Shown piece by piece: positions 33,589 through 52,389 of a stretch of 64,000 nucleotides of DNA; within the stretch, counting starts at the first letter, position 1; every line of letters begins with the position of its first letter. Position numbers and translations under genes: made by a program. The notes below the pieces were generated by a model. The model was given only the letters and a program-made list of their open reading frames with translations, did not search any database and was not told where the DNA came from. The stretch spans positions 96,001-160,000 of the forward strand of contig CAVVUS010000030.1 in assembly GCA_963751345.1 (NCBI GenBank). The letters are read 5' to 3'. The DNA is from an uncultured Chloroflexia bacterium (GTDB taxonomy: Bacteria; Chloroflexota; Anaerolineae; B4-G1; SLSP01).

Positions 33589-33618
33589 GACTTCACTCTG
33601 TGGCGCCAACGTGCGCTT

Positions 33619-33673
33619 TCGTCGTCCGAGACGCTCTCGTCGTCCGAGACGCTTACTCGTCGTCCGAGCCGCC
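33619..33673. repeat. Three copies of hairpin unit TCGTCGTCCGAG(A/C)CGC, a variant of the 18-bp family
   Basis: Copies start at 33619, 33637 and 33657; the last overlaps the infA 3' end. Confidence 0.75.
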
Positions 33674-33904
33674 GGCGCGCTGTTTCTTATGACGATAGAC
33701 GATACGTCCTCGAGTTAGATCGTAAGGGGAAAGCTCCACACGAACGCGATCGCCCAGAAGAATACGGATGTAGTACTTGCGCATCTTGCCGGACAGATAG
33801 GCGAGAACCTCATGGCCGGTCTCCAGCTTGACGCGAAATTGCGTGGCAGGGAGGGCTTCAACAACCGTTCCCTCGACTACTATCTTCTCTTCTTTGGTGG
33901 TCAT
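33653..33904 (-). CDS. infA: Translation initiation factor IF-1
   Basis: [61 protein letters not shown]. Confidence 0.97.
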
Positions 33905-33914
33905 AACGCGGGCA

Positions 33915-35574
33915 CTAATCCTCTGGCTCTGCTTCGCCGCTCGAAAGCGACTCATCGGCAGAAGCGGCATCGTCGTCAGGCGCTTCGTCGTCAGGCATTT
34001 CGTCTTCAGACACTTCGTCGCCGGACGCCTCGTCCGCAGACACTTCGTCTTCAGGCGCTTCGTCTTCAGACGCCTCGTCTTCAGACGCCTCGTCCGCACT
34101 CGTCGTCGAACTCCTCGTCCTCGTCCATCTCCTCGACGTCGTCCTCTTCAATGAGGCCCTCGTCGTCACCGAAATCGTCGAAATCGAGATCGTCCTCAAC
34201 CGCGTCGTCTTCTTCCACTTCTGCGGCAGCGGCAGCTTCAGCTTCCTCTTGAATTTGGGTGAGCGCCCACTCTTCCCATTCGTCGGGGCGAACCTGCCGA
34301 ACGCTCAAGCCGATACGACGGCGATCCGGCTCGACTCGGATGATCTTTACAAGAATACTATCGCCCGTAGAAAGCTCTTCACGCTGCGCGATATCGCGCA
34401 ACTCGGAGTTGTGCAGCAGGCCCTCGACGCCAGGCTCAAGCTCGATAAAGACACCAAAGTCGACTACCTGTGTGACCTTGCCCTCGACAAGCCGCCCGAC
34501 CGTGTAGCGTTCGACCACGCTCTCCCACGGATCAGGCGTAAGCGCCTTGATACTCAGCGCAATCCTCTGTCGGTCATTGTCGACGTTCAGCACCTTGACC
34601 TTGACCCGCTGGCCCGCGTGGTAGATTTCCCCAGGGTTCTCAATTCGCCCCCAGGAGAGCTCGGAAATGTGCACCAGGCCATCCATACCGCCCAAGTTGA
34701 CGAACAGACCGAAGTCCGTAATCTGGCTAATCCGGCCACGGCGAACCTGACCGGCCTCAAGTTCCTCAAGCAACGACTGACGTCGAATCGTGCGCCATTC
34801 CTTCGCAGCAGCCCGCTGCGACAGAATCAGTCGGCGCCGGCGGCGATTGACTTCGATCACCTTAAGCATGATCTCCTCGTCAACCATCGCCTCCAAACGC
34901 CGCTGTCGCTCTGCGGGTTGACGGATGCGGTTGAAGCCAATCAACTGCGACATCGGGACGAAACCTCGCAGACGACCGAAGTCGACTGTTAGACCACCCC
35001 GGTTAGAGCCGTTAACGCGAGACTCGTAAACCTCCTGGCTCTCGAGAAGCTTCTCGGCAATCAGCCAGTCCTCCTGAAGCAAAGCCTGAGAGATGGAAAG
35101 CTCAACGTTGCCATCGGAATCCCGGAACTGGGCAATCACGACAGGGACTTCGTCCCCGACATTGAACTCCCTACCCACAACGTCCTGGATATCCTCGATC
35201 GGCACAAACCCGTCACGTTTTCCGCCGATGCTGACGACAAATCCATCGTTCCTGCGATACAGGATCGTCCCCTCGCGCAGCTCACCACGCTTCAGCGTGC
35301 TGCCGGAGAGAGATTCCTCAAGCTGGTCTTCCCAAGAAGCAGCCGAATCCATAGTTGGAGGGGCCGCGTCGGGGGATGCAGAGGTCTTGCCCGTGTCTGC
35401 AGGGGTCATTTCAGGCGAGGACGCGGATGTCTTTGCAGGCACCGCCGCCACCGGCGAAGATGATTCCGCTACAGCAGTCTCCGGCGCGGTCGACGTATCT
35501 TCCGCCTCGTCGGGCATCTCGGTCTGGGTTTCCACGGGCTCAGAAGGCACAGGGGTGTGATTCAATTCTTCCAC
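33915..35574 (-). CDS. rpsA: 30S ribosomal protein S1 (four S1 domains) with long acidic tail (frameshift near 34098)
   Basis: [47 protein letters not shown]; the tail continues in the frame of ORF 33915-34199. Confidence 0.85.
33967..34100. repeat. About nine degenerate 15-bp tandem repeats encoding [15 protein letters not shown]
   Basis: Plus strand CTCGTCTTCAGACGC-like units, several forming a CGTC-N4-GACG mini hairpin. Confidence 0.85.
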
Positions 35575-35690
35575 ATGAACTCCTATTCCACTCAGTTTTG
35601 CAGAAATTCTGTATCGCGCAACTTAAGTGGGTCTAATAAACTCCAGATATTGTATCATACCTGAGCGCAAAGTCAACATAAGTGCTACCA

Positions 35691-36524
35691 TCAACCGGCA
35701 GCAACAACAGCCTCTCCGCCATCGACAGGGATCACAGCGCCCGATATCCACGTCAGGCGCGGATCCGCGAGCGCCACCAAGGCTTGCGCAACGTCCTCAG
35801 GCTGCGTCAGCCTGCCTGCCGGATGGAATTGGTGAACCTGTTCCAGAATCGCTTCGTGCCCGGGGATGGCACGCAGCGCGGGCGTATCGGTGACCCCCGG
35901 CATCAGACAGTTCGCCACGATTCCGCGAGGTGCCAACTCTACCGCAAGCTGGCGAACATGCGCCTCCAGGGCTGCCTTTGCCGCCGACACCGGCCCGTAG
36001 TGCGATGAAACGCGCTGCGACCCGATGCTGGTCATCGCGTAGATCCGGCTGCCGCGCCGCAGTAGGTTGGCCGCGATGAGATCCTGCGTCCAGTAAACCA
36101 GACTGTGCGCCATCACCCGCAGCGTCATCTCCATCTGGCTCTCGTCAACTGCCGTGCCAGGATCCTCGGCGATATACGGGCGGAGGCTCCCAAACGCGAG
36201 CGTGTGCACGAGCATATGGATACTGCCCACCGGATCCGACGACAATGCCTCGCCGACGCTCGCGATCACGCGGGCCCGTCGCCTCGGGTCAGCAGCATTC
36301 GTATTGAAGAACAGCGCCTGCCGTCCGGCGGTCTCGATGTCGGCGACCACCGCCTCGGCTCGCTCAAGCGTCCGGCGGGGATCGAGATGGATGCCGATGA
36401 TGTGCATACCCTCCCGGGCCAGGGCCCTGGCCGCGGCCGCGCCGAACCCACTGGAGGCGCCCAGGATCAGAGCCCAGCGCCCTGTCAGAGAGCCACTCCA
36501 CGCGTTCCATAGGCCCCCCAACAC
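35691..36524 (-). CDS. SDR oxidoreductase, enoyl-ACP reductase (FabL/FabI)-like
   Basis: LGASSGFG, YGPVSAAKAALE (Yx6K), PGVTDTPAL, ISGAVIPVDGG. Confidence 0.85.
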   Translation of the reverse strand: MLGGLWNAWSGSLTGRWALILGASSGFGAAAARALAREGMHIIGIHLDPRRTLERAEAVVADIETAGRQALFFNTNAADPRRRARVIASVGEALSSDPVGSIHMLVHTLAFGSLRPYIAEDPGTAVDESQMEMTLRVMAHSLVYWTQDLIAANLLRRGSRIYAMTSIGSQRVSSHYGPVSAAKAALEAHVRQLAVELAPRGIVANCLMPGVTDTPALRAIPGHEAILEQVHQFHPAGRLTQPEDVAQALVALADPRLTWISGAVIPVDGGEAVVAAG

Positions 36525-36973
36525 TAGTCGTCGAAATCCGAGCCACTGTAGAAGTCCTCACCCCCGCCCGGACCCATCCCGCCTCCGGGACCCCCACCTT
36601 CACCCATCAGGTCGGGTAATTCCTTCTCGATATCCTCGGGGTTTTGGCCCGCCTCGAGGCGGTCGACGACTTCCTCGAATTCCGGCCCCATCTCGCCGGC
36701 TTCATCACCCATTTCGTTCATCATCTTGCGCATAAATCGCCCCATACTCTTGGGATCGTTCTCGTCGAAGTCACCCCAAGCAGTAGGATCGGCCATATCT
36801 TCCAGGCGACTATCTTCGGACCTAACCACGCGCACGCGGGAGACCAGGCGCCGGACCTCCTCACTCCCGCATCGCTTGCACTTTATCTTGTTCTCTTCAA
36901 CGTCCGAAAAGGAGCGCCAGAACACCGAGAAGCGGCGACCGCAATCGGCGCAACGGTATTCATAGATCGGCAT
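36524..36973 (-). CDS. FmdB-family zinc ribbon regulatory protein
   Basis: MPIYEYRCADCG..CKRCGS..RRLVSR. Confidence 0.88.
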   Translation of the reverse strand: MPIYEYRCADCGRRFSVFWRSFSDVEENKIKCKRCGSEEVRRLVSRVRVVRSEDSRLEDMADPTAWGDFDENDPKSMGRFMRKMMNEMGDEAGEMGPEFEEVVDRLEAGQNPEDIEKELPDLMGEGGGPGGGMGPGGGEDFYSGSDFDD

Positions 36974-37187
36974 CTTTCCTCTCCTTATTCAATTGTGGTA
37001 TAGTAAGACCTGCTCACGGGATTTGTGAATCACGAGAGCGACGGACCGATGTTCTGACCGCCTCCCTATTCCAAACCCGCAATCGGCAATCGAAGATGCA
37101 GACTTATCCGAGCGTCACTCAAGGGCCAACGAGCCCTCAAAACACAACTCGGCCAGGTCTGAAACGCGATCTAGCCAGAGCGAGGTC

Positions 37188-37216
37188 ATTATACCGGGAA
37201 TGGCGGCTGGGAGCAA
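37188..37216 (-). promoter_or_regulatory. Putative sigma70 promoter driving a long leader upstream of the FmdB-like gene
   Basis: Minus strand TTGCTC-N17-TATAAT. Confidence 0.55.
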
Positions 37217-37220
37217 ATAA

Positions 37221-37853
37221 ATGAGCCACGACATCGCTATCGATCCCTACCATCCGAAGGCTTCGCCCCTACTCGTCGTCATTTCCGGCCCCTCCGGGGT
37301 GGGTAAGGACAGCTTGGTTGAGTGGATGAAGACCCGCGGGGCGCAATTCCACTTCGTGGTGACCGCCACCTCCCGCCCACCGCGGCCTAGCGAAGTGCAC
37401 GGGGTGGATTATCTCTTCGTCTCGCAGGAAGTCTTTGAGGCAATGATTGAAGCTGACGAACTACTGGAGTATGCCGTTGTCTACGGGCAGTACAAGGGCA
37501 TTCCAAAGGAACAGGTACGCGAGGCATTGGCAAGCGGGCAGGACGTCGTCATGCGGCTCGATGTCCAGGGGGCTGCTACGATCCGGCGTCTCATTCCGGA
37601 GGCCATCCTCATCTTCCTGAGCGCGTCATCAGAAGGGGAGCTGGTCGAACGGTTGCGGAAGCGCAGGACCGAATCCGACTCGCAGCTCCAGCGACGCATT
37701 GAGACCGCCCGACAGGAAATGGGACATATTACTGACTTCGACTACGTTGTCATCAACCGCGAGTGCGAGCTCGACCGGGCTGTCGACCAGGTCCTCAATA
37801 TCATTGACGCGGAGCACCATCGCGTGATCCCGAGGCGGGTCTCGCTGTCATGA
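37221..37853 (+). CDS. gmk: Guanylate kinase
   Basis: ISGPSGVGK, TSRPPRPSEVHGVDYLF, DVQGA, FDYVVIN. Confidence 0.96.
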   Translation: MSHDIAIDPYHPKASPLLVVISGPSGVGKDSLVEWMKTRGAQFHFVVTATSRPPRPSEVHGVDYLFVSQEVFEAMIEADELLEYAVVYGQYKGIPKEQVREALASGQDVVMRLDVQGAATIRRLIPEAILIFLSASSEGELVERLRKRRTESDSQLQRRIETARQEMGHITDFDYVVINRECELDRAVDQVLNIIDAEHHRVIPRRVSLS

Positions 37854-38665
37854 CCCCTGAACATGAGCTGTATCCGCCGACCAGCCCCCCTCCACAGCGG
37901 TTGCGACTGCCGAGCTTTCCCGGCAGCCGCCGGTCTGCCACCGCCCGCCGGCCCGGCGCCGTGGCGACCTACGTACTGATCGGGTTCAATGTGCTGGTGT
38001 TCCTCGCTGACTATGCCCTTGGCCGCGCCGTCACGGCCTATGGGGCGCTGGTCCCTCGCCTGGTGTTGCAGTATGGGCAGTGGTGGCGGCTCATCGCGGC
38101 AGCTTTTCTACACGCGAATATCATCCACATTAGCCTCAATCTCTACGCCCTCTATGGATTGGGACGGCTGACAGAGCGCTTCTTTGGCCTGAAACGGTTC
38201 CTGATCATCTATGGCCTCGCGCTCTTGGGATCCGGTGTCCTGGTCACGCTATTCTCGCCGATGAATACCCCGTCGGTGGGCGCCTCCGGCGCCATCATGG
38301 GTGTGCTCGGCGCTCTCGTCGTCTACTTCTGGTTCTACCGGGACCTTCTTGTCGGAGGTCGAGGCTTCCTGGGACAACTGGCGCGAATGGCACTGATCAA
38401 CATCGGGATAGGACTGCTGCCTGGCATCAGTTTGTGGGGACACCTTGGAGGCTTTGTGACCGGCGCGGTAGCCGGTTTCGTCTTGGTCCCCCGGTATGTC
38501 TTGTTGGATGCCACGAACCTGCAAGAGGCCGATCGACCTGCGGACGGCTCGCCCGGCGGAAGCCTGGCTGTCCGGGCACTGCACGTGCGCGCATGGCTAG
38601 GCATCTTGCTGGTGGGCGCCGGGGAGCTGGGGCTGCTCGCACTCGCTTTCCAGATACGGGGATAG
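37850..38665 (+). CDS. Rhomboid intramembrane serine protease
   Basis: WWRLI..FLHANIIHI..N, VGASGAI, GHLGG. Confidence 0.93.
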   Translation: MTPEHELYPPTSPPPQRLRLPSFPGSRRSATARRPGAVATYVLIGFNVLVFLADYALGRAVTAYGALVPRLVLQYGQWWRLIAAAFLHANIIHISLNLYALYGLGRLTERFFGLKRFLIIYGLALLGSGVLVTLFSPMNTPSVGASGAIMGVLGALVVYFWFYRDLLVGGRGFLGQLARMALINIGIGLLPGISLWGHLGGFVTGAVAGFVLVPRYVLLDATNLQEADRPADGSPGGSLAVRALHVRAWLGILLVGAGELGLLALAFQIRG

Positions 38666-38671
38666 CTGTCA

Positions 38672-38881
38672 ATGCCCGGGCCTATAGAGCTGCGAATTGG
38701 GGACCTCGTGGAGCTGCGTAAGGCCCATCCCTGTGGTGGGAACACGTGGAGGGTCCTGCGGGTCGGGCTGGATATCGGGATAGAATGTACAACATGTCGA
38801 CGGTATGTCTTGGTGCCGCGACATCGGTTTGAGGGCAGGATCAAGCGTTTTGTTGAAAGAGGAGAACGTTCTGACGTCTGA
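38672..38881 (+). CDS. DUF951 family protein
   Basis: GDLVELRKAHPCGGNTWRVLRVGLDIGIECTTC. Confidence 0.9.
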   Translation: MPGPIELRIGDLVELRKAHPCGGNTWRVLRVGLDIGIECTTCRRYVLVPRHRFEGRIKRFVERGERSDV

Positions 38882-38904
38882 ACGTATTAGCGTGACAACG
38901 TTCC
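38864..38904. repeat. 8-bp-period ACGT array
   Basis: ACGT/GCGT cores at 38866, 38874, 38882, 38890 and 38898. Confidence 0.7.
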
Positions 38905-38915
38905 GAGGAGAATCA

Positions 38916-40136
38916 ATGAGACGATTCCTTTTTCTGTTCTCCGATACCGGCGGGGGACACCGTGCCGCTGCCCAGGCCGTCAAGGACGAGATGGAACGCC
39001 TCTACGGGGCAGGTGCTGAGATCGACATGGTCGATGTCTTCGTCGAGCTTGGCCGGTGGCCCTTTCGCCGCTTCCCGGATTGGTACCCTACCTGTGTCGC
39101 CCTCAGCGGAATCCCCTGGGGCGTGGGATTCCACCTCTCCGACGGTGTCAAACTTATGCAGACCATGTCCAAGATCGTCTGGCCCTATGCCCGCACACCT
39201 ATGTGCAGCCTCCTGCGGCATCATCCCGCGGATGTCATTGCCTCCTTCCATCCGATCCCAAACTATGCACTCTTCCTGGGGCTGCGACAGATGGGGTGGC
39301 AGACCCCGGTGGCCGTTGTGGCTCTCGACCTCGTTACCACTCACGCTGGTTGGTTCGTGCCGGGGGCTGAGGCCTACCTCGTGCCCACCTACGCCGCAAA
39401 GGCACGCGCGCTCCGCTGGGGCGTCCCCCAGGAGCGCGTCCGTGTGAGGGGAATGCCCACCCGCCACGCCTTCCTCTCTGCGATGAACCTACAGAAATCG
39501 GAGGCGCGGGCACGTCTGGGGCTGCCCCAGGACAAGGACATCGTTCTTGTTGTAGGCGGCGGTGAGGGGATGGGCCCCATAGCACCGGTCGTGCGGGCCA
39601 TTGCTCGCCTTCCGCGACGTCCCCCTCCCTACACCGTCGTCATCACCGGCAAGAACCATGCTCTCTACGAGGAACTCACCCAGCTTGGTCTGCCCGCGTC
39701 GATCAGGATCGAGGGCTTTGTCGGCGATATGGAAGTCTGGATGCGTGCAGCCGACCTCCTGGTGACCAAGGCCGGGCCGAACTCGTTAGCTGAGGCCTTT
39801 ATCGTCGGCTTGCCGGTCGTGCTCTATGCCGCTCTCCCCGGTCAGGAAGAGGGCAACGTAAGCCACGTCGTCGAAAACGGCGCCGGCGTTTTCGCGCCCT
39901 TTCCGAAACAGGCCGCACGGGCGGTTGCGCGGCTGCTCGACCGGCCCGAGGAGCGCCTGGCCATGGCCAAACGCTCACGAGCCCTGGGGCGCCCTCTGGC
40001 CTCGGAACAGATCGCCCGCGACCTGTGGGAAATGGCCACCCGAAAGAGCTACGTCCACCGCCCATTCAGGGTGACGGCTGAGATGAGCACAGATGGCGAA
40101 CGGACGTGGCGCAACACAGACGCAGGGGATCTCTAA
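38916..40136 (+). CDS. MGDG synthase/UgtP-like GT28 glycosyltransferase
   Basis: SDTGGGHRAAA, VGGGEGMG, DLLVTKAGP, PGQEEGN; GAGGAG RBS. Confidence 0.92.
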   Translation: MRRFLFLFSDTGGGHRAAAQAVKDEMERLYGAGAEIDMVDVFVELGRWPFRRFPDWYPTCVALSGIPWGVGFHLSDGVKLMQTMSKIVWPYARTPMCSLLRHHPADVIASFHPIPNYALFLGLRQMGWQTPVAVVALDLVTTHAGWFVPGAEAYLVPTYAAKARALRWGVPQERVRVRGMPTRHAFLSAMNLQKSEARARLGLPQDKDIVLVVGGGEGMGPIAPVVRAIARLPRRPPPYTVVITGKNHALYEELTQLGLPASIRIEGFVGDMEVWMRAADLLVTKAGPNSLAEAFIVGLPVVLYAALPGQEEGNVSHVVENGAGVFAPFPKQAARAVARLLDRPEERLAMAKRSRALGRPLASEQIARDLWEMATRKSYVHRPFRVTAEMSTDGERTWRNTDAGDL

Positions 40137-40139
40137 CTT

Positions 40140-41141
40140 ATGGATTCCCTGATTCGACGCTTCGTCGACCACCTCAGATTCGAGCGAGGTTACTCACCGA
40201 ACACCCTGGCGGCCTACGAACGTGATTTGCGGCAATTTCAGGCATACCTTTTCCACGCATCCGTGCTTCCTCTACCTCCTGAGGCATATCCCGAGCAAAG
40301 TCGGGGGAAGGGCCTGGGAGGGGACACAGACACCTGGCTCGCCGCGCTGAAGCCCGGCCACTTGGACGACTTTGTCACCTCGCTGCAGGAGGAGGGCTAC
40401 AAATCCGCGACGGTGGCCCGGAAGATTGCGGCGACCCGCGCATTCCTCAAGTTCCTCTACACGGAGGGTCTCACCGGACCTGAACTGCTCGATTGGCTGC
40501 ACCAGCCGAAAACGGAGAAACGGCTGCCCAAGGCCCTGACGCAGGATCAGGTCACCCGCTTGCTCGATGCGACTGCCGTAGAGGACACACCCTTGGCCCT
40601 TCGCGACCGAGCCCTCCTGGAGACGCTCTATGCAACCGGCATGCGAGCGTCAGAGATCATCAGCGTCCTGACCAGGGATGTAGACTTCGAGGCCGGGACC
40701 GTTCGCTGTTTCGGGAAGGGAAGCAAGGAGCGCATCATCCCCTTGCACGCCAAGGCTTGCAGGATCCTGGCCGCCTATATCGAGAAAGGACGGCCCTTTC
40801 TGCTTCGCGACATCGGTGAGCAGACGCTTTTTGTCAGCAACCTGGGGCAACCCCTGACGCGTCAGGGGTTGTGGTTTCTGGTCCAGCACTACGTCGAAGC
40901 CGCCGGACTCGCATCCTGGATCACGCCGCACTCATTGCGCCACACCTTTGCCACGCACCTGTTGGAAGGCGGCGCGGAACTGAGGGAAGTTCAGCAGCTA
41001 TTGGGACACGCCAGTATCACCACCACCCAGATCTACACAGAGGTTTCGAGTCGCCGCAAGCGCGAGGCCTACAACCATGCACATCCGCGGGCGCAGTACA
41101 ACAAGGAGCGCGACGATGGAAACGTTCGTCACGATGGATGA
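40140..41141 (+). CDS. xerD: Tyrosine recombinase XerD
   Basis: SPNTLAAYERDL, RDRALLETLYATGMR, GKGSKERIIP, TPHSLRHTFATHLL, LLGHASITTTQIYT; short repeat-derived insertion at about 40261-40325. Confidence 0.88.
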   Translation: MDSLIRRFVDHLRFERGYSPNTLAAYERDLRQFQAYLFHASVLPLPPEAYPEQSRGKGLGGDTDTWLAALKPGHLDDFVTSLQEEGYKSATVARKIAATRAFLKFLYTEGLTGPELLDWLHQPKTEKRLPKALTQDQVTRLLDATAVEDTPLALRDRALLETLYATGMRASEIISVLTRDVDFEAGTVRCFGKGSKERIIPLHAKACRILAAYIEKGRPFLLRDIGEQTLFVSNLGQPLTRQGLWFLVQHYVEAAGLASWITPHSLRHTFATHLLEGGAELREVQQLLGHASITTTQIYTEVSSRRKREAYNHAHPRAQYNKERDDGNVRHDG

Positions 41142-42024
41142 CCTGCAGGAAGCCGTATCGGCTATCCGCAAGCAGACGGACCTGGTACCGCGGGTAGGGC
41201 TGATCCTTGGATCGGGACTCAATCCTCTGGCTAACGCCGTCCGAGGCGCTACCGCCGTCCGAGGCGCTTCCCCCTCCCCGGCCCTCCCCCAAGAGGGGAG
41301 GGAGGACCCGGTGCGGATCGACTTCGACCGCATCCCTCACTTCCCCGTCTCCACCGTGCAGGGGCACCAGGGCAAGCTCATCCTCGGTGCCCTGGAGGGA
41401 CAGCCTGTGATCGTGATGCAAGGGCGCACGCACTACTACGAGGGCTACAGCATGGGCCAGATCGGACTCCCGGTGCGTGTGATGGCCCTATTGGGAGCCA
41501 AAACACTCATCGTCACCAATGCAGCCGGTGGGCTCAACATGGCCTATCGCCCCGGCGAGGTGATGATCATCCGGGACCACATCAACCTGCTCGGCATGGC
41601 GGGGCCAAACCCGCTGCGTGGGCCTAACCTCGACCATTTCGGACCACGCTTTCCCAACATGAACGACGCTTACGATCCGGAACTCCGCGAGGCAGCCAGA
41701 CAGATCGCCCTTGAGGCAAAGATCCCGATTCAGCAGGGCGTCTATATCTGTCTGGCAGGACCGAACTTCGAGACTCCCGCGGACGTACGCTTCCTTCGCG
41801 CTATTGGGGCCGACGCGGTCGGTATGTCCACGGTTCCCGAGGTGATCACGGCGCGCCACAGCGGCATGCGGGTGTTGGGACTCTCCGGCATCACCAACAC
41901 ACTCTCGGGTGAAGAGGGCGGCGCAGGGCCGGATCACGAGGAAGTCATCGAGGCCGGACAGACCTTGGTGCCGCGACTGGAGACGATTGTACGGGGCATC
42001 CTTCGAAAGCAGATTGCTGCCTGA
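41116..42024 (+). CDS. punA: Purine-nucleoside phosphorylase (trimeric PNP type) with a 20-aa repeat-derived insertion
   Basis: LILGSGL, IPHFPVSTVQGHQG, QGRTHYYEG, TNAAGG, DHIN, GPNFETPA, VGMSTVPE. Confidence 0.93.
   Translation: METFVTMDDLQEAVSAIRKQTDLVPRVGLILGSGLNPLANAVRGATAVRGASPSPALPQEGREDPVRIDFDRIPHFPVSTVQGHQGKLILGALEGQPVIVMQGRTHYYEGYSMGQIGLPVRVMALLGAKTLIVTNAAGGLNMAYRPGEVMIIRDHINLLGMAGPNPLRGPNLDHFGPRFPNMNDAYDPELREAARQIALEAKIPIQQGVYICLAGPNFETPADVRFLRAIGADAVGMSTVPEVITARHSGMRVLGLSGITNTLSGEEGGAGPDHEEVIEAGQTLVPRLETIVRGILRKQIAA
41235..41304. repeat. Two 18-bp hairpin units plus a CCCTCCCC/GGGGAGGG element inside PNP
   Basis: CGCCGTCCGAGGCGCT at 41235 and 41253; stem CCCTCCCC-CAAGA-GGGGAGGG at 41282-41302. 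Confidence 0.85.
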
Positions 42025-42027
42025 CCT

Positions 42028-42828
42028 ATGAACGTTATCCTCAACTGGCTCAGCCAACAGGTCATCTGGATCTCTGTGATCAGCCTGATTGGAGCGCTGG
42101 GCTATGTGATGGCAGCGTTGCTGTCGAAACGCAGGCGTGACACAGCGCAGTTCACGCTGGAGCGCGAGGTCTACCACCAGCGCATGGCGCGTGCGTGGCT
42201 CGTAGCGGCGCTATTCCTGACCCTGGCTGCGATGATCTTTACTATCAGTATCTATTGGGCCCCCTCCGGCGCCCTCTCCTCCTCTGGGGGAGGACCGGGG
42301 AACGGAACGGCCACACCCAGCAACGGGCTTTTCACCTTGACACCGGCACCCAATCAGTTCATCCCCAACGCCACACTGACGGCTTCCGGAGCGGTGACGG
42401 ATGTCGTGGTCACCGCCCCGGACCTTCTCGTCCCCTCACCCACGCCTCCTCCAGGAGCGGTCGGGGGCGGGAGCACGCCCATACCGCAAGAGCTCCTGCA
42501 ACCCGACTGCCCAAGCCCTGGGGCCCAACTCACCTTTCCCGTAGCAGGCGGCGGTTTGTCAGGCATCGTCGAAGTGTTGGGCACAGCCCAGGTCAACGCG
42601 TTCTCCTACTACCGGTTCGAGGTGATCTTCCCCGGTTCCGACACGCCCAATTTCATCGCTCAGATCGACCAACCGGTTGAGAACGGCTCGCTTGGGCAAT
42701 GGGACGTGTCGGACGCGTCCCGCTATCCGCCCGGCGGCCCCTATCGGTTCCGTCTTGTCGTCGTGGATATCTATGGGAATACGGCATCGTGTACCATCCC
42801 GGTAAACATTGGAACTGAAGAACGTTAG
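42028..42828 (+). CDS. Hypothetical membrane protein with Pro/Thr linker and C-terminal Ig-like beta domain
   Basis: Two TM helices, a PT-rich linker, then VEVLGTA..FSYYRFE..GSLGQWD..YRFRLVVVD. Confidence 0.7.
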   Translation: MNVILNWLSQQVIWISVISLIGALGYVMAALLSKRRRDTAQFTLEREVYHQRMARAWLVAALFLTLAAMIFTISIYWAPSGALSSSGGGPGNGTATPSNGLFTLTPAPNQFIPNATLTASGAVTDVVVTAPDLLVPSPTPPPGAVGGGSTPIPQELLQPDCPSPGAQLTFPVAGGGLSGIVEVLGTAQVNAFSYYRFEVIFPGSDTPNFIAQIDQPVENGSLGQWDVSDASRYPPGGPYRFRLVVVDIYGNTASCTIPVNIGTEER

Positions 42829-42898
42829 CACAAGGGTTGGCACGCGAGAGCGCGGAGACGGCCCGCCCTGAGCGCATCGCGGGGCCTCTAGCCGGTAA

Positions 42899-42940
42899 TA
42901 TGCAAACGTGCAAACGTGCTAACATGCCAACGTGCAAACG
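42899..42940. repeat. 8-bp tandem array (AACGTGCA)n
   Basis: Cores at 42906, 42914, 42922, 42930 and 42938. Confidence 0.8.
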
Positions 42941-42952
42941 CAGGAGGTAATC

Positions 42953-43519
42953 GTGCTTGTTCGAATCGCCCGTGATGATGATTGGGAGCCTTGTCTCGAC
43001 ATCGATCTCTCGTATGAGACTGACATGGCCTGGCAGATGGACGAACGTCAGGAGGGGGGAGAATGGCGCGTCTCGTTCCGTGAGATCCGATTACCCCGCA
43101 CCCTGCACATACAATCTGCCGTACTGGACAGCGCACAGACGCCCTCCGAGGCGCGTGAAGAGCGCTCGAACTTGCTCAAGACGTGGCAAAGTCGGGACCA
43201 ATTCTGGGTCGCCGTGGAGCACAGGCAGATCATCGGGTACATCGGGCTGGACATCGATCAGGCCCGGCATCAGGCTCGAATCAGCGATCTGGCAGTCGCC
43301 TCTGACGAACGTCGCCAGGGAATGGCAACGGCGATGCTGCAGCGTGCGACAGAATGGTGCAACCGCCAGCATATCGACCAACTCGTCCTCGTCTGTCCGC
43401 TCAAGGCCTACCCCGCCATCAATTTCGCGCTCAAACACCGGTTTGCCTTCTGCGGGTTCCAGGACGCTTACTGGCCCGGTCAGGAAGTGGCGCTTTTCTT
43501 CCGACAGAGAATCCGCTGA
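42953..43519 (+). CDS. GNAT N-acetyltransferase
   Basis: AGGAGG RBS then GTG; ISDLAVASDERRQGMATAML; FAFCG. Confidence 0.85.
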   Translation: MLVRIARDDDWEPCLDIDLSYETDMAWQMDERQEGGEWRVSFREIRLPRTLHIQSAVLDSAQTPSEAREERSNLLKTWQSRDQFWVAVEHRQIIGYIGLDIDQARHQARISDLAVASDERRQGMATAMLQRATEWCNRQHIDQLVLVCPLKAYPAINFALKHRFAFCGFQDAYWPGQEVALFFRQRIR

Positions 43520-43602
43520 CTTATTACGATAGCCTGATGGAGCGGAGCATCCGTTAGCAGCTTGACGAGGGTTTGTCAGGCTCGATTGGGGTAACAGCTT
43601 TT

Positions 43603-45631
43603 ATGGATTGGTTGCACTTCTTGAGCGGGGCCAGCGACGTCCTCACAGCCGGTGTCGGCGTGACGGCGTTAGCCCTTGTCCTCTATCTAACCGTCTACAA
43701 TCACAGGAGCAAGGTCGCCCAGACCTTTGTGGGCCTGTTGAGTTGTGTGATCGTCGTCTACCTGGTGGACCTGCTGTTGCGTAACATCACGGGTCCCGGG
43801 GAAGCGGAGAGCTTGCTCCGTCTCCAGTGGATCGGCATCGCCTTCACCCCGCCGCTGTACCTCGAATTCGTGCGTGCAATACGCAGCCGGCTTCTGAACC
43901 GTACCGTTCTGAGGGGTAGCTTTCCCGATTGGCTGCGAGCCGTGAGCCTGGGGTTGGGGGGCGTCATCACCGTCTTGGCCCTCTATACCGACACTGTCGT
44001 CCGGTCCCCCTCTGCCGTTCCTTCTCCCCTCGTGGGAAGCCCGGGGACGAGGACTACCGCTGCATCTGCAGCCGGGCCCGTTATTCTACCCTTTCGCGCT
44101 CTTCTTTGCGGTCGTCGCGCTCTGGGGTTTGCGCGAGACCCTGATTGCCCGTGAGCGCTGCTATACCCGCGCTGCCCGGCGGCGTATGGGCTATCTGGCC
44201 ATCGGCTTTGCGGCACCGGCGATGGGAGTCTTTCCTTACCTGCTCCTCTCGGGGTGGCCCGCTGGATTGGGCGAGCGGCTCCTGGGCGGCGGCATCCTTC
44301 AGGGATTCCTCATCACGGGCAACCTCGCGGTGGGTGTAATGCTCGCAATGGTCGCTTACAGTGTAGCATTCTTCGGCACGTTGATGCCGGATCGGGTCAT
44401 TAAGCATCGTATGGTGCGGTTCCTCTTGCGCGGTCCCGTGACAGCCATCCTGGCACTCATCGCGTTCGGCCTCGGCCTTACGCTCGAACCCGCGCTTGGC
44501 CTCGGTCAGTACACCCTGTCCCTCATCTTTCTCGCCGTTGCCATCATCGTTGCACAACTCGGCGTCGAGTTGTTAAAACCCTTGATTGACCTCTTGCTCT
44601 ATCGCGGGGGCGCACTGGAGGTAGCCCAGGTCCAGGAGCTCAGCCAACGCTTGCTCACTACTGCCGACGTCAACCAATTCCTTGAGAACGTTCTCGCCGC
44701 CATCTGCGAACTTATGCGCAGCGACGGCGGCTTTTTGGCCATCCTCGAGGACGGCAAGCTGCGCTGGGAGATCTGGTGCGACCTCTCCATGTCTGAGGAC
44801 GAGATCGCCGGCGTCCCCCTCAGCGAGGTCACCCAATTGCGTGAGGAGGATGACTTCATCCGCTGGGATGGCCATTGGGTCCTGCCGCTCCGCGCCAAGC
44901 CTGCCCCGAGCAGCGTCGAAGCGATCGCCCTCGACGAAGCGGTGGAGCAGACGCAGGGCCGGGAAACCACGGCTTCCCCGGCTCCGCTTCTGGGCCTGGT
45001 CGGTCTCAGGACCCCTGACATCCAAACCCCGCTCTCGCCCGACCAGCAAAGTGTGCTCGACCAACTGCTGTTGCAGGCCTCCGCGGCGCTGGCCGACCGG
45101 CGTCTCCAACAGGTCGTCTTTGACGCCTTTACCCCTCTGTTGCCCGAGCTCAGGGACATCCAAATGCGCGGCGGTATGCTGCGCTACGAGGCCGAATCCG
45201 TCGTGGGATTCTCTCTCGTCCAATCGCCGGAGCTGCCTCAATGGGTACACGATGCCCTGGCGCACTACTGGGGAGGTCCCAGGCTCACCGAGAATCCGCT
45301 TCTAGAGCTTCACATCGTTCGACAGGCCGCTTCAGAGTACGAGGGCGACGTTGTTAAGGGGCTGCGCGCTGTCTTGGCCAATGCAATTGAGCGATTGCGT
45401 CCTGACGGCGAGCGGAAGTTGACAGCTCCCGAGTGGCTGTTATACAATATCCTAGAGATGAAGTTCCTGCGAGGGCAAAAAGTGCGGCACGTCGCAATGC
45501 GCTTGGCGGTCAGCGAATCGGACCTTTACCGCAAGCAGCGTGTTGCGATAGAAAACCTTGCCGGTATCCTGACGGAGATGGAAAAGGATGCGGTCCAGGA
45601 CACAGGCGCCGTCTCGAGGCGCAGATGTTAG
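43603..45631 (+). CDS. 7TM (HisKA_7TM-like) membrane protein with GAF-like region and C-terminal HTH (frameshift near 44040-44070)
   Basis: Multiple TM helices (LRLQWIGIAFTPPLY); C-terminal VRHVAMRLAVSESDLYRKQRVAI; no kinase H-box found. Confidence 0.75.
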
Positions 45632-45688
45632 ACCGTCTGAACATTCAAACGTTCAGAACGTTAACGTAGAAACGTTCAGACGTTCCAA
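45625..45688. repeat. 8-bp-period ACGTTC array
   Basis: Cores at 45625, 45633, 45641, 45649, then 45664, 45672 and 45680. Confidence 0.75.
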
Positions 45689-45699
45689 GGAGTGGCCGA

Positions 45700-46695
45700 A
45701 TGGACTCATACGTTCCTCCGTATTCCCCCCTCTGCGAGCCGTACTGGCAGGCATTGCTGGAGCAAGGCCCTGTCAGCGTGGGTACTGTCCCTGGGGTATG
45801 GGAGTGGATAGAGCTGCCCGCGGTGCCACTTGAGATTTGGGATGAGGCCCGTGAACTACAGCAGCACCATACGATCATGAACCTCACGGTCGACAGCTAC
45901 AATCGCGGCGGCCTCATCGCCCACTGGAAGGACATCGAGTGCTTCGTTCCGGCGTCTCACCTCGTTGCCTATCCCTTCCCAGCAGATCCAGACATTCGCG
46001 AGTCCTGCTTTGCCGGTTATCTTGGCAAGGAGCTACGTCTTTGCCTCATCGAGGTTGAGCCTACCCGTAACCGCATCCTCCTCTCCGAGCGCCAGGTCGC
46101 CGAGTGCGAGCTCGAAGAGCCCGAGTGGCCCGACTGGCTATGCATAGGCAGCACCTGCGAGGGAACCATTACCAGCGTTCGACCCTTCGGTGCCTTCGTC
46201 GACATCGGCCCCATCGAGGGCATGGTCCATATTTCCGAGATCTCCTGGGGCCGCGTTCGCCACCCCCAGGACTTCGTCCAGCCTGGCCAACGCGTGCGCG
46301 TCAGGATCCTCAACGTGAACCTGGAGCACCAGCGTGTCGGGCTCAGCCTCAAGCGACTCCGGCCCAATCCATGGGCCAGCGTTGAGGATTACCTGCAACC
46401 CGGCGACGTGGTCACCGGCAAGATCGCGAGTATCGAGCGCTTTGGCATTTTCGTCGAACTCATGGACGGCATCGAGGGGCTGCTCCACATCTCGGAACTG
46501 GATAACGCCACCTGTGCTGACGAAATCCATAGCGCTTACCAGGCTGGAGAGACCATTTGCGTCCGTATTCTGGATATGACACCCAGCGACCATCGCATCG
46601 CACTGGCGCTCGTTCCCAAGAGCGAGATCCCTCACCTATCTGCCGGCGCCCACCGCTCGGCAGACAACCGTCCCCAGGGGGAGCTTGATGCCTAA
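45700..46695 (+). CDS. S1 RNA-binding domain protein (second, three-domain RpsA paralogue)
   Basis: NRGGL..FVPASHL, PFGAFVDIGPIEGMVHISEISW, FGIFVELMDGIEGLLHISEL. Confidence 0.88.
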   Translation: MDSYVPPYSPLCEPYWQALLEQGPVSVGTVPGVWEWIELPAVPLEIWDEARELQQHHTIMNLTVDSYNRGGLIAHWKDIECFVPASHLVAYPFPADPDIRESCFAGYLGKELRLCLIEVEPTRNRILLSERQVAECELEEPEWPDWLCIGSTCEGTITSVRPFGAFVDIGPIEGMVHISEISWGRVRHPQDFVQPGQRVRVRILNVNLEHQRVGLSLKRLRPNPWASVEDYLQPGDVVTGKIASIERFGIFVELMDGIEGLLHISELDNATCADEIHSAYQAGETICVRILDMTPSDHRIALALVPKSEIPHLSAGAHRSADNRPQGELDA

Positions 46696-49328
46696 GCGCA
46701 CCTATGCGCGCAAGGGAATGGCCCATCCGCGTGCGTCATCCCAGGCGCGCACGCCGTCCCAGGCGCGTACGCCGTCGTCCTCGAGTAAGGCGAAGACCCC
46801 TTCTTCCTCCGGGGGAGGTAGTCGCCAGGCTGCTGGTGCGGGGAAGGGAAGTGGGAGTCTCGGTCGATGGCTGTTGGCCTGGCTCACGGGCCCGGCGGGC
46901 CAGCAAATCCTGTCTCTGGTCCTGATCGCCATTGGTATTTTGACACTGATCACCCTGATTCCGGGCGTCAACATTGTCCCAGGCGCGCACGCCGTCCCGG
47001 GCGCAGACGCCGTCCCAGGCGCGGACGCCGTCCCAGGCGCTGACGCCAGCCCCACACCAGGGTCGACCTCGGGCGCCCTTGTAGGTGCCTGGGTGCGCCT
47101 TCTCGTCTTCATCTTCGGCTGGGCCGCCTACCCGGTTGCGACACTTATCACACTCATAGGGCTCCTCTGGCTGCGTCACCTCGTCCACCAGGCTACGGCG
47201 TGGCGATGGCGTCCCTTCCTGGGCCTGGAACTTGTCCTGCTCGGGCTGCAGGCGCTCACCTATACCCTCATCAACCAGCACAGTTGGAGCCTCGTCGAGT
47301 CGGGAAAAGGTGGCGGCGTGATCGGCTGGGCGCTCTATCTCTTCTTCAGCGACTATCTGGGGCCGCTCATCACAGGACTCCTGATGGGCCTCGTCGTGAT
47401 CGTGGGCATCGCCCTGGCCTTCGACCTCACGCGCCGAGATCTGGCACTCTTCGGCAATCGCATATCAGAAGTGTGGTCGGCGTACCGGGCAGCCCGCGAA
47501 GCTCGACTCCGAGCACGGGAGCGTATGGCTTCGCAGATGCGGATACCCTCCCAGGCACAGTTCCGTCCCAGGCGCCGATGCCTTCGGAGGCACAGAGGAT
47601 TGGTAACGCAGGCAAAGGAAGCTACCTGACGACCCAATCATCTGGCCCCGCACTCACTCAACAACCCACCTTGAGCAAGTCCGCCCGAGGTGCAGAGGCG
47701 CAAAGCAGACGGCAGCCAAACCCCGCCGCTCCTTATCCCTCGTCCCGCATACCGCCTCTCCTGTACCCTTGACCATTCTCCAAGAGTCGCGCACTGCCGG
47801 CATGGATCCGCAGGAGATCGAGCGCAAGAGCCGCATCATCGAGGAGACCCTCGAACAGTTCGGGGTTCCAGCACGCGTCACCGAGGTGCGCCCGGGACCA
47901 ACGGTCACGCAGTTTGGGGTCTCTCCCGGCTACATCAGTCGCGGGTCCGCTTCCGGCGACAGCGAATCGCCGACGCCTTCCGCTTCTGGGGGGAAGAGCC
48001 CTCTCCCATGGGGGAGAGCCGGGGAAGGGCGACGGAAGGTACGTGTGAGCCAGATCGCCTCCCTGTCCGACGACCTCGCGTTGGCCTTGGCGGCCCGCTC
48101 CCTCCGCGTAGAAGCCCCGGTCCCGGGCCGAGCGGTCGTGGGCATCGAGGTACCTAATGCCGATACCAGCATCGTCCGGCTGCGGTCGGTGCTGGAAAGC
48201 GAGGCGTTTCGCAAGTGTGGACGGCCGCTCTGCTTTGCCGTGGGACTCGACGTCGCCGGCGGCCCCCAAGTCGCCGATCTCTCGCGAATGCCTCACCTGC
48301 TCGTCGCAGGCACCACCGGGAGCGGGAAGTCGATCTTCATCAAAGCCGTGGCTGCAAGCCTCGTCATGAATAACACGCCCGACGACTTACGGCTGATTGC
48401 GATCGATCCCAAGATCGTGGAGCTAAGTCATCTCAACGGCCTACCCCATCTGCTCGGGAGCACTGAGACCGACATAGAACGCGGACTGCGGGTACTGCGC
48501 TGGGTTGCTCACGAGATGGACGAACGTTACAAACTCTTCGCCAAGTCGGTAGCGCGGAATCTCGAGGATTACAACGCGCGGTTGGCGCGGCGCCGCACTT
48601 CCCAAACCTCCTCCAAGGGCGGCGCGAGTTTTCCCGCTGGAGGGGAGGACGACGGCAAGCCCTTGCCACGCATCGTTGTTCTCATCGATGAGCTCGCGGA
48701 TATGATGATGTCCGCGCCCGAGGAAACCGAGCGCACGCTGACGCGAATCGCGCAGATGGCGCGCGCCACCGGGATCCACCTCATCGTCGCGACGCAGCGT
48801 CCGAGCACCGACGTGGTCACAGGTCTGATCAAAGCCAATTTCCCCGCGCGCGTGAGCTTCGCCACGGCGAGTGGCGTCGACTCGCGGGTCATCATTGACA
48901 GCCCAGGGGCCGAGTCACTGCTTGGTTCGGGCGACATGCTCTTCCTGCCGCCGGATGCATCGGCTCCAATTCGCGTCCAGGGATGCTATATCTCAGACAA
49001 CGAGCTGGAGGCAATCATCCAATTCTGGCAGCAAGAGGCCGGAGCCACTCCCGCGAAGGCGCCCTGGGACATCCTTGCCGAGGCCCGGGGTCCTGACAAC
49101 TGGCGCATCGAGGGACTGGATGAGGATGCGGATCTGCTGGAACAGGCGATCGCTTACGCCAAAAACCGGGGCAAAGTGACCACGTCAGGGATCCAGAGGC
49201 GCCTGCGCATCAGCTACCCGCGGGCGGCCCGCCTGATGGAACAAATGGAGGCGATGGGGCTCGTGGGCCCTCAGGAAAGCGCCGGTCGAAAGCGTGCCGT
49301 CATCCTCGGCGGCGACGATGATAGCTGA
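46688..49328 (+). CDS. ftsK: DNA translocase FtsK/SpoIIIE (frameshifts near 47562 and 47720-47770)
   Basis: 4TM N-terminus (GGGVIG), GPTVTQF, PHLLVAGTTGSGKS, IDELADMMM, ATQRPS, gamma domain IQRRLRISYPRAARL. Confidence 0.93.
46733..46776. repeat. 18-bp unit array in ftsK, read as TPSQAR
   Basis: GCGTCATCCCAGGCGCGC / ACGCCGTCCCAGGCGCGT / ACGCCGTC. Confidence 0.85.
46971..47047. repeat. 18-bp unit array in ftsK, read as VPGADA
   Basis: Four units of ACGCCGTCCCAGGCGCNN-type sequence starting at 46971, 46989, 47007 and 47025. Confidence 0.92.
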
Positions 49329-49408
49329 AGCAGGCAGGCGCTGTAAGTCCTACAGCGATGCTGATTATCGCTCTCTCGCTAACTGCTGACCGGTAGAGGC
49401 TGCCTGAC

Positions 49409-50988
49409 TCACCCCGCCCGTGCTCGCCGCAAATGCACGGGAAAGCGGCTGCGAAGTCGGTTGCCGTCGCGCTTGGCCCAACCAAGGGGAAAGCCATCCA
49501 CCGTCACCAACACATAGCCGGGCCTGCCGGCGTCCGCCCAGAAACCCCCGTCGAGGAAGCGATCCACCCGTGGATCGTCCGGAGAGAGCCGCAGGGACGC
49601 CCGGACGTCCTCCGGCCCCAGGGCCATGGCCAGTGCGTGATCGGGCTGCACCTTGTTGTGTCGTAGCGACGCCACCCACCACCCCTGCCGTAGTATGGGG
49701 ACCTGTCCAAGGAGTGCCGGCTCCATCGGCGTGATATAGCATTGATCGTCTTTGGCAAGGACAAGCCCCGCTTCGGGAGGGTCGCCTCGCAACACCTCAC
49801 CTAACGTCCTTTCATAGAGTCGCAGGACGCGTCCCGGAATCTCCTGACCGGTCCACTGAGCAGGCAGATCATCAGGTGGCTCCCCTCGCCGCCGCATCAT
49901 CGCGTAGAAATGTCCGTGTCCGGGGCCGGTGTGGGGCCAATATCGTCCGGCCCGCCGCAGATCCGCAGCAGCCTCCCCGGTACCCTGGCGCTCGACAGTA
50001 CTCTGGCGCTCGAGCCACTCCGGATGTCCTGGGCCCATGCCGGGCAAACGTGGGAGATCGATCAACTCGAAGTCGGGTCGTTCCTCCAAGAAAGCGGCAA
50101 TGACTCCCTCGTTCTCCTCCGGAGAAAAAGTACAGGTCCCGTAGAGGATCCGCCCTCCCGCCCGTACCAGATCCGCGGCCTGGGCCAGAATGCGCTTCTG
50201 TCGGCCTGCATACGCCTGCACGGTTGCGACGCTCCACTCCTGAAGCGATCTGGGGTCCCTGGAAAAAGTCCCCTCGCCGGAGCACGGAGCGTCGACCAGC
50301 ATTGCGTCGAAGAGTCCCTTTCTTTCCATGGACACGTCACGAGCGAAGTCGAGGGAAGGGTCGACGAAAGAGGGCGCGCGACGCCGTCTGAGGCGCGGAC
50401 GCCGTCCGAGGCGCGGACGCCGCCCACACCTCCGCCAAGCGATCCGGATGCGCATTGGTGACAATAGCGTTGGTGACGCCCATGCGCTCCAAATTCATCG
50501 CGAGGATCGTCGCACGGCGCCGCGAAACCTCATTCGCCACCAGGACCCCCTCGCCGTTCATCCGGGCGGCGATATGCGAAGCCTTGCTTCCCGGTGCGGC
50601 AGCCAGATCGAGTACCCACTCCCCAGGCTGCGGGTCGAGAAGCATCGCAGCCGCCATCGCGCTGGGATCCTGAATATAGTACACGCCGGCGGTGTGATAG
50701 GGATGCTTGCCGACAGGGGTTTCATCCTCGGCCTCCTCGCCGGAAGCCCCATCCGCCCTGAGCACGAGCCCCTCGGGGCACCAGGGTACCGGCTCAGTCG
50801 CCCACGGCAGGGCCGCCCTAAGCGTCTCGAGCGCTACCCCGGCGGGGATTCAGCCTCAGCCCCACGTCACGTTTGACGAGAGCCGCGAAAAAGGCCTCAC
50901 TTTCGTCACCCAGCCACCCGCGCATGCGCGCGACGAACTCCGGCGGAAGGGCGAGAGCGTTAGAACGTTCGAACGTTTCCAAGTTCAC
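49409..50988 (-). CDS. RsmB/NOP2/RsmF-family rRNA m5C methyltransferase (frameshifts near 50835 and 50420; repeat insertion)
   Basis: LPPEFVARM, YYIQDPSAM, VLDLAAAPGSK, LVDAPCSGEG, YGTCTFSPEENE, RsmF-like C-terminus VDGFPLGWAK. Confidence 0.88.
50335..50425. repeat. Composite repeat insertion in the methyltransferase gene
   Basis: GAGCGAAGTCGAGGG at 50341 plus 18-bp units ACGCCGTC(T/C)GAGGCGCGG at 50381 and 50399 and a partial unit at 50417. Confidence 0.85.
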
Positions 50989-51075
50989 TCGTTACCACGT
51001 TGGAACGTTAACACGTCTCAACAGCTTGCCCTACCGCAGTTCGGTAGGGTTCCCACGTGGTAACTTTCGAACGCT
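50956..51075. repeat. ACGT octamer array with embedded REP-like hairpin CCCTACCG-CAGTT-CGGTAGGG
   Basis: Hairpin at 51029-51049 flanked by AACGTT-type 8-mers. Confidence 0.8.
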
Positions 51076-52332: not shown

Positions 52333-52389
52333 CCTTCCCTCCTGTAGAGACGTGGCGATGCCCCGTCTGAGGCGCAAACGCAGTCTGTT

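Follow-up and report, generated by a model that had tools for sequence, protein, structure and literature searches.

We identified a very small palindromic repeat that is dispersed through the genome of an uncultured Anaerolineae bacterium (Chloroflexota) and forms tandem arrays inside housekeeping genes. The stretch of DNA analyzed (the window) is 64,000 nt of contig CAVVUS010000030.1 in assembly GCA_963751345.1, a metagenome-assembled genome (MAG) designated G000 (5.40 Mb, 49 contigs, 62.8% GC, 93% complete). It corresponds to G000:C30:96001-160000; bare coordinates below are window positions, and C-numbers denote contigs. The repeat has a 15-nt core, and successive units follow each other head-to-tail, mostly every 18 nt. 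A preliminary description of the window had placed this unit in the PNP, GNAT, ftsK and RsmF-like genes, at the end of a '7TM' gene and next to infA, and each of these sites does carry it (Table 1). The element is probably a lineage-specific, very small dispersed repeat of the repetitive extragenic palindromic (REP) or small dispersed repeat (SDR) kind, shaped by slippage, copying and selection together.

Comparison of all copies defined the core as CGCC-GTCYSA-GGCG-C, in which a 4-bp inverted repeat surrounds a 6-nt loop. The core is followed by a variable linker of 2–5 nt, giving periods of 17–20 nt. With up to 2 mismatches allowed, the 14-mer CGCCGTCCSAGGCG matched the window 15 times, always on the plus strand. 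Dinucleotide-shuffled windows contained 3.73 ± 1.67 matches (largest value 9), and none of 100 shuffles reached 15. The unit is therefore commoner than chance in the window, and this was also observed at the genome level: the 15-mer CGCCGTCYSAGGCGC was present in 123 exact copies in G000 compared to 0 for the reversed pattern, and the G-version of the 14-mer in 57 exact copies compared to 0–2 for eight permuted 14-mers of the same composition. When all 12-mers of G000 were ranked, the two derived from the core (67 and 60 copies) formed the top family apart from poly-C (141 copies). The next families were ACCTTGCGAAGG (110), poly-A (92) and AGACCTTTGGGG (82), and both ACCTTGCGAAGG and AGACCTTTGGGG are palindromic.

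A search of G000 with no more than 1 mismatch identified 194 units at 123 loci, which included 81 single copies and 42 arrays of 2–6 units; a looser search detected 59 arrays, 32 of them genic. Neighboring units were spaced by 18 nt in 57 cases, 17 nt in 13 and 20 nt in 6. Within the window, Tandem Repeats Finder reported as 18-nt arrays the infA and PNP arrays and the first two ftsK sites, with the limits given in Table 1, and a fifth array at 50373-50422. Adjacent linkers within an array were identical in 14 of 22 pairs, compared to 3.8% of random pairs. All 15 core positions were very strongly conserved over more than 100 loci, a figure to which ascertainment applies. Apart from a partial next unit, no flanking position of the 81 single copies exceeded 0.36 bits, and neither a conserved tag nor a target was seen. 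Only one inverted pair was found among the loci (C30:16349/16365), arrays being otherwise head-to-tail. The longest array (C23:254571-254715; 8 units, mixed linkers, periods of 16–20 nt) was intergenic.

Genic and non-genic assignments were our own calls, based on open reading frames (ORFs) and codon scores in G000. Sixty-six of the 123 loci were inside ORFs with good codon scores and 57 were outside; the latter included loops of REP-like hairpins and a 3' untranslated region. Pfam confirmed the earlier gene identities for PNP, GNAT, FtsK (4TM and motor domains, in separate ORFs), the RsmF-type protein (RsmB/F) and IF-1, but found no match for the 500-aa '7TM' gene. The unit is read differently from site to site (Table 1), and the 32 genic arrays used five of the six frames on both strands. 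Conservation is therefore at the DNA rather than the peptide level, as had been put forward, and the non-coding copies support the same conclusion. Eighteen of the 32 genic arrays shared one antisense frame encoding APxTAx (APQTAx, APRTAx or APGTAx). Pfam families were found in 23 of the 26 array-bearing ORFs submitted, such as the PHP domain of DNA polymerase III alpha (dnaE), CarA, glutamate 5-kinase (proB), GAF/HAMP sensors, a Ser/Thr kinase linker, alpha-2-macroglobulin, GH94 and an S9 peptidase. Spacings that were multiples of 3 accounted for 47 of 55 genic spacings compared to 26 of 47 others (Fisher p = 0.00096), which we interpret as purifying selection on the reading frame; non-genic arrays showed 17- and 20-nt periods. 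In an AlphaFold2 model of PNP (mean pLDDT 77, pTM 0.81), the insert coincided with residues 47-61, which had pLDDT <50 and no secondary structure. It is thus modeled as a low-confidence surface loop or coil, consistent with the earlier idea that the repeat generates new protein loops.

Orthologs confirmed that the genic copies at PNP, GNAT and RsmF are true insertions. The 20 extra PNP residues of G000 were missing in all 16 other aligned orthologs. At this site G000 has 2 units and its relative G002 has 5, with arms TGCC/GGCA and one unit of only 17 nt. The 36-nt GNAT insert was common to G000 and G002 and missing in all four outgroups (G016, G012, G033 and G007); its 3' part can base-pair with native sequence on the 5' side of the insert. 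At the end of the '7TM' gene G002 has 3 units, and four outgroups terminate earlier and have no unit. At ftsK site 2, G002 has approximately one degenerate unit and is 45 nt shorter. The RsmF insert was missing in all five relatives, based on alignment for G002 and BLAST coordinates for G012, G016, G007 and G033.

Copy number changed by whole units between close relatives, which agrees with the proposed tandem expansion. Besides the PNP site (2 versus 5 units), contigs from a public run representing a strain ∼98% identical to G000 lacked 18 nt in the PNP array (41230) and 19 nt in the RsmF array (50373). In regions of G000 and G002 selected for repeat richness, copy number changed by a unit-sized step in ∼13 cases, and further segments of 18, 36, 54 and 43 nt were present in one genome and absent from the other; 14 of the 40 indels of at least 9 nt carried the core. 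New sites included the RsmF insertion (91 nt), C27:98628 (18 nt), C14:300230 (54 nt) and C27:84943, where a bare 15-nt core is located next to a 21-nt unit. No target-site duplication was seen at clean insertions between G000 and G002. The empty sites at PNP, RsmF, C14:300230 and C27:84943 partly resemble half of the core; judged from these sequences, this suggests microhomology-guided copying. The sequence targeting put forward in the preliminary description was not supported beyond a handful of empty sites of this kind. Another 18-nt insertion of G000 relative to G002, at C27:81413, makes a perfect palindrome with its native neighbor (GCCACGCG-C-CGCGTGGC) and looks like a fold-back (template-switch) event. 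Inverted target duplication was considered as a general rule and rejected: once the REP-like loci were set aside, the flanks of the 81 single copies paired no better than shuffled flank pairs did (p = 0.07). The G002 assembly itself contained two versions of one 17-kb region (C2:952599-969663 and C19:14768-33035), with 93–95% and 89–90% identity to G000, suggesting two strains or species in that bin.

Table 1. Sites of the repeat and of associated insertions in the window
Feature	Position	Strand	Description
infA array	33614..33672	+	three variant units: CGTC-GTCCGA-GACG twice, then imperfect CGTC...GCCG
PNP array	41230..41268	+	two canonical units, read AVRGAT
PNP insertion	41242..41301	+	60 nt / 20 aa: units plus second small palindrome
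Second PNP palindrome	41282-41302	+	CCCTCCCC-CAAGA-GGGGAGGG
GNAT insertion	43139..43174	+	36 nt / 12 aa (TPSEAREERSNL); one unit with one mismatch, core 43140-43153, read TPSEAR
'7TM' gene end	45605..45622	+	single variant unit in last codons of 500-aa gene
ftsK site 1	46728..46776	+	2.7 units, read TPSQAR, phase 1
ftsK site 2	46976..47047	+	4 units, read VPGADA, phase 0
ftsK site 3	47525..47595	+	degenerate units in linker; ftsK frame breaks here in the G000 assembly
RsmF-like insertion	50327..50417	+ (gene minus)	91 nt: 51-54-nt unique segment plus two units, cores 50382 and 50400; unit on strand opposite to rsmF
Permease gene 5' end	52361..52374	+	single variant unit CCCCGTCTGAGGCG

The repeat had a narrow distribution. 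Exact cores numbered 123 in G000, 160 in G002, 47 in G016, 34 in G012 and 24 in G004, and the other 14 of 19 same-genus genomes had 0–2 copies; 12 genomes from two other families had none. A scan for the two-unit tandem in one genome per species (185,579 species) detected 48 stretches, 46 of which were in five Chloroflexota MAGs and 2 in Myxococcota MAGs. The latter (L137 and L160) had one exact two-unit tandem each. The L160 tandem, examined by eye, sits in a longer Gly/Ser/Ala/Asp coding repeat and probably arose by convergence through GC-rich codons. Two of the carriers, G012 and G016, had no GNAT, C-terminal-tail or RsmF inserts, and the PNP insert was missing in G012; separate lineages have therefore had their sites seeded independently. 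A single-gene PNP tree, in which the deep nodes were unresolved, did not show whether the carriers are monophyletic. The forward core was on the C-rich strand at 90 of the 123 loci, including 40 of the 57 non-genic loci, and the same bias was found by 50-kb bins (40 versus 14) and by contigs (20 versus 8). Loci were also clustered, with up to 10 per 50-kb bin compared to a mean of 0.92 (index of dispersion 2.6).

The preliminary description presented the unit as a hairpin with a compensatory stem change. Arm complementarity was kept through double changes in two arrays (window 33620-33651 and PNP of G002). However, when the folding of three arrays as DNA was predicted, neither strand did better than shuffles (z from -1.2 to +1.0), and the genome-wide excess of compensated arm variants was weak against a noisy background (17 over 12 possible classes versus 85 uncompensated over 132). 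The variant unit reported after infA was indeed present twice, but the array is not wholly downstream of the gene: infA is on the minus strand with its stop codon at 33653-33655, the array covers its 3' end and this stop, upstream of a terminator-like hairpin, and the third unit is imperfect.

Longer hairpins provided a second context for the core. Approximately 18–20 of the 81 single copies were at the tips of such hairpins, which belong to two intergenic REP-like families, ACCTTCCGGGTTGC[loop]GCAACCCGGAAGGT and GTGCCTGGCACTT[loop]AAGTGCCAGGCAC, with varying loop inserts (e.g., C14:142173, C34:39895 and C33:72222). Minimal members have 4-6-nt loops; a core in either orientation, an inverted pair or a three-unit array occupies some loops. 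The core was also found near other palindromes: 5 of the 22 CCAGTCTGCTGG sites (21-nt units) were within 60 nt of a core locus (expected 0.07). Small palindromes that differed between G000 and G002 and co-localized with the core included CCAGTCTGCTGG itself, GTCGAT-TCCG-ATCGAC and an CCCCTCCCC...GGGGAGGG hairpin. The second palindrome of the PNP insertion (41267-41303) has a copy at C19:6681-6716 of G000 (94.6% identity over 37 nt) and is therefore itself a low-copy dispersed element; a 42-nt insert at C27∼84830 in G002 is related to it.

We propose that three processes would account for these observations. Arrays grow and shrink by whole units through local tandem duplication and deletion, as seen among the relatives; the simplest route would be slipped-strand mispairing of the short direct repeats at the borders of each unit. 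Seeding is evident from the new sites: the core is copied into apical loops of REP-like hairpins, spots beside other palindromes and coding sites with a partial likeness to it. Ectopic template switching, or the copying of short patches out of existing arrays, seems somewhat likelier than a dedicated transposase. Within genes, the spacing statistics suggest that selection keeps only those versions that are in frame, use a tolerated frame and fall in a loop, linker or terminus, so that the repeat would appear in proteins as hexapeptides like APQTAx, PSEAxx, ASDGVR and AVRGAT.

Several observations weigh against this explanation. Passive slippage predicts neither the strand bias nor the clustering, which would fit a replication-linked single-stranded DNA (ssDNA) mechanism or a functional polar motif. 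Hairpins predicted to be no more stable than shuffled sequences leave hairpin-assisted slippage without energetic support. The 51-54-nt extra segment of the RsmF insertion had no second copy anywhere in the G000 genome, and this insert was thus not simply copied from elsewhere. No copying enzyme or template was identified, and the likeness between empty sites and the core is an impression gained by eye at ∼5 sites, with no control. The gene calls also rest on our own ORF and codon scoring of a 93%-complete MAG that probably has indel errors.

Some of these features would be expected if a dedicated mobile system, such as a RAYT/IS200-type ssDNA transposase (RAYT, REP-associated tyrosine transposase), recognized the small hairpin and inserted it into ssDNA, such as hairpin loops or the lagging-strand template, in a replication-tied orientation, a possibility that we regard as real but unlikely. 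G000 had three Y1 transposase matches, one of which passed the NCBIfam cut-off for RAYT (92.3 versus 80 bits) and another of which scored 64 bits. One RAYT-like gene, other than the one above the cut-off, was flanked by REP-like hairpins in a REPtron-like arrangement, with the core at the tip of one hairpin. Nesting in hairpin loops, the orientation bias, regional clustering and patchy presence within the genus are all consistent with such a system. However, Y1_Tnp matches were spread over 17 of the 22 genus genomes without regard to the repeat, and repeat-free genomes were among them (26 matches in G007 and 6 in G005). The RAYT beside the core-tipped hairpin had its closest relative in G005, a non-carrier (61%); in G002, the richest carrier, its match reached only 31%. 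Neither a conserved flanking tag or target nor target-site duplication accompanied the insertions, and DUF559 was not found in G000 at its 93% completeness. The search for a co-distributed transposase, nuclease or other enzyme, which the preliminary description had anticipated, therefore identified none among the candidates checked (Y1/RAYT and DUF559). Two RAYT-type Y1 genes have their own flanking palindromes: L001 (C19:138105-141362), which appears N-terminally truncated, has GTGCCGGGGA..TCCCCGGCAC-type hairpins, and L002 (C23:277443-280676) has GCAGGGGTCTCCCCTGC. In an Rfam scan of the window and these two RAYT loci, only one tRNA reached the gathering score.

A bolder version, which we consider more doubtful still, is an enzyme system that writes the 15-nt hairpin into ssDNA, both hairpin loops and exposed coding DNA, in a replication-oriented manner, and that has been active in parallel in two or more lineages within a single Anaerolineae genus. 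If true, no smaller insertion unit of autonomous appearance would be known, and the system would be a natural source of new protein loops.

The core could instead be a functional DNA motif (a polar replication-oriented, protein-binding or uptake-type sequence) with arrays as by-products. The strand bias with GC skew by locus, bin and contig and the conservation of 15 positions, ascertained as it is, would agree with such a role, and nine of the ten bases of the Neisseria DNA uptake sequence are contained in the core. Yet the motif was abundant in just 5 of 19 genus genomes, its copy number was hypervariable between sister species and strains, and its loci were clustered rather than evenly spread; ∼200 copies per 5.4 Mb is low for uptake-type motifs, and insertions disrupt the ftsK and rsmF frames in the G000 assembly. 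We therefore regard a functional motif as improbable.

Ordinary low-complexity coding repeats under peptide-level selection, i.e., Ala/Pro/Thr linker hexapeptides whose DNA likeness comes from GC-rich codons, are very improbable given a core read in five of six frames on both strands, 57 of 123 loci outside confident ORFs and 17- and 20-nt periods in non-genic arrays. This is so even though 18 of the 32 genic arrays encode APxTAx-type peptides and the only matches outside Chloroflexota were the two Myxococcota MAGs, including the L160 coding repeat. The ribosomal protein S1 gene near infA illustrates how ordinary acidic pentapeptide repeats can look palindromic. Its 15-nt tandem repeats (33970-34122 and 34081-34260) have a palindromic look (CGTC-TGAA-GACG); in the +1 frame, they encode an acidic DEASE-like pentapeptide tail that would extend the acidic C-terminus of S1, the annotated frame of which stops at 34081.

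Frame breaks were observed at or near the repeats. In G000 ftsK is broken into two ORFs, one for the membrane part (46685-47629) and one for the motor part (47769-49328), and G002 has a single 881-aa frame; the related strain has 1 additional nt at 47562 and 2 fewer at 47701, which would join both frames. The 91-nt insert shifts rsmF out of frame in G000, whereas the G002 gene is a single ORF; the related strain is without 19 nt of the insert, and the 72 nt left are in frame. The acidic S1 tail changes frame near 34100 in G000, and the related strain is without 7 nt at 34101-34108, possibly restoring it. An assembly or sequencing artefact of the MAG could explain these breaks, which are not common to the related strain or G002, and homopolymer 12-mers are frequent in G000, but as an explanation of the repeat itself it is hardly credible, because arrays were found in five independently assembled genomes, some at orthologous sites, and in public-run contigs from other samples with unit-sized differences.

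The window also contained AT-richer repeats with an 8-nt period (TGCAAACG / AACGTTCA), located in intergenic regions just 5' of genes (42901-42940, 45640-45685 and 50954-51010). These are members of a ACGTTCAAACGT family with 52 copies and could have a regulatory role.

In the repeat-rich regions compared, these tiny repeats were a leading source of length differences between sister Anaerolineae species. Among the housekeeping proteins that they altered are DNA polymerase III alpha, CarA, ProB, PNP, FtsK and RsmF. They provide a natural catalog of protein sites that tolerate loop insertions, as well as markers for strain typing. The clustering of frame breaks at such repeats is a warning for MAG annotation. 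In addition, the strand bias and hairpin-tip nesting can be used to approach the old question of how repeats of the REP and SDR kinds spread.

A literature search revealed no paper describing this Anaerolineae repeat, but its kind is not new, contrary to the preliminary description: in-frame palindromic repeats are already known as intragenic GTAG/CGTC-tagged REPs and Rickettsia palindromic elements (RPEs) (Di Nocera et al. 2013, PMC3733652), and SDRs have been reported in cyanobacteria (PMC2884548). Tagged REPs are 20–40 bp long, with stems of 5–13 bp (GTAG) or 8–9 bp (CGTC) and a terminal unpaired tag; some units are in frame inside genes, notably replication/repair genes, and Thauera GTAG-1, found via a tandem-repeat database, has 5-bp stems (PMC3733652). 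Like these REPs, which are small, GC-rich, species-specific palindromes occurring unevenly as single, paired or clustered copies (PMC3733652), our repeat is a high-copy dispersed family (123 loci, 66 in confident ORFs) with in-frame units in dnaE and ftsK. Its 15-nt core and 4-bp stem fall below the REP size and stem ranges, and it has no terminal GTAG/CGTC tag, the internal CGTC of the core spanning the stem-loop junction. Furthermore, it forms head-to-tail 18-nt arrays instead of head-to-head dimers and shows no evident co-distribution with RAYT. Hairpin-flanked RAYT genes, with the core at the tips of such hairpins, recall the REPIN/RAYT system (Bertels and Rainey 2011, PMC3116915). Unlike REPINs, the unit is not an inverted REP doublet (one inverted pair only), and RAYT presence does not appear to track the repeat.

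RPEs are likewise palindromic, inserted in frame into protein genes and read as extra peptide segments (PMC3733652), and this likeness extends to our insertions. The present units differ in forming tandem arrays with an 18-nt period, in which copy number often changes. RPEs are single elements and much longer. Cyanobacterial SDRs are ∼20 bp, tandem, variable in copy number and possibly mobile, a loose description that our dispersed repeat also fits (PMC2884548). Compared by description only, it differs from them in phylum and may differ in sequence and in having many copies translated in several frames. Elhai and colleagues reportedly found in 2008 that SDRs nest within other repeats, as the core does here. 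In-frame length variation by slippage is shared with coding minisatellites or variable-number tandem repeats, and no E. coli gene holds more of the small variable segments studied by Touzain et al. (2010, PMC2884548) than ftsK. Such tandem repeats are ordinarily locus-specific, whereas here one core is common to more than 120 loci in different frames, and the peptide-level, one-frame conservation of an ordinary coding low-complexity repeat was not observed. The repeat is distinguished by its tiny size, head-to-tail 18-nt arrays, nesting at hairpin tips and strand bias.

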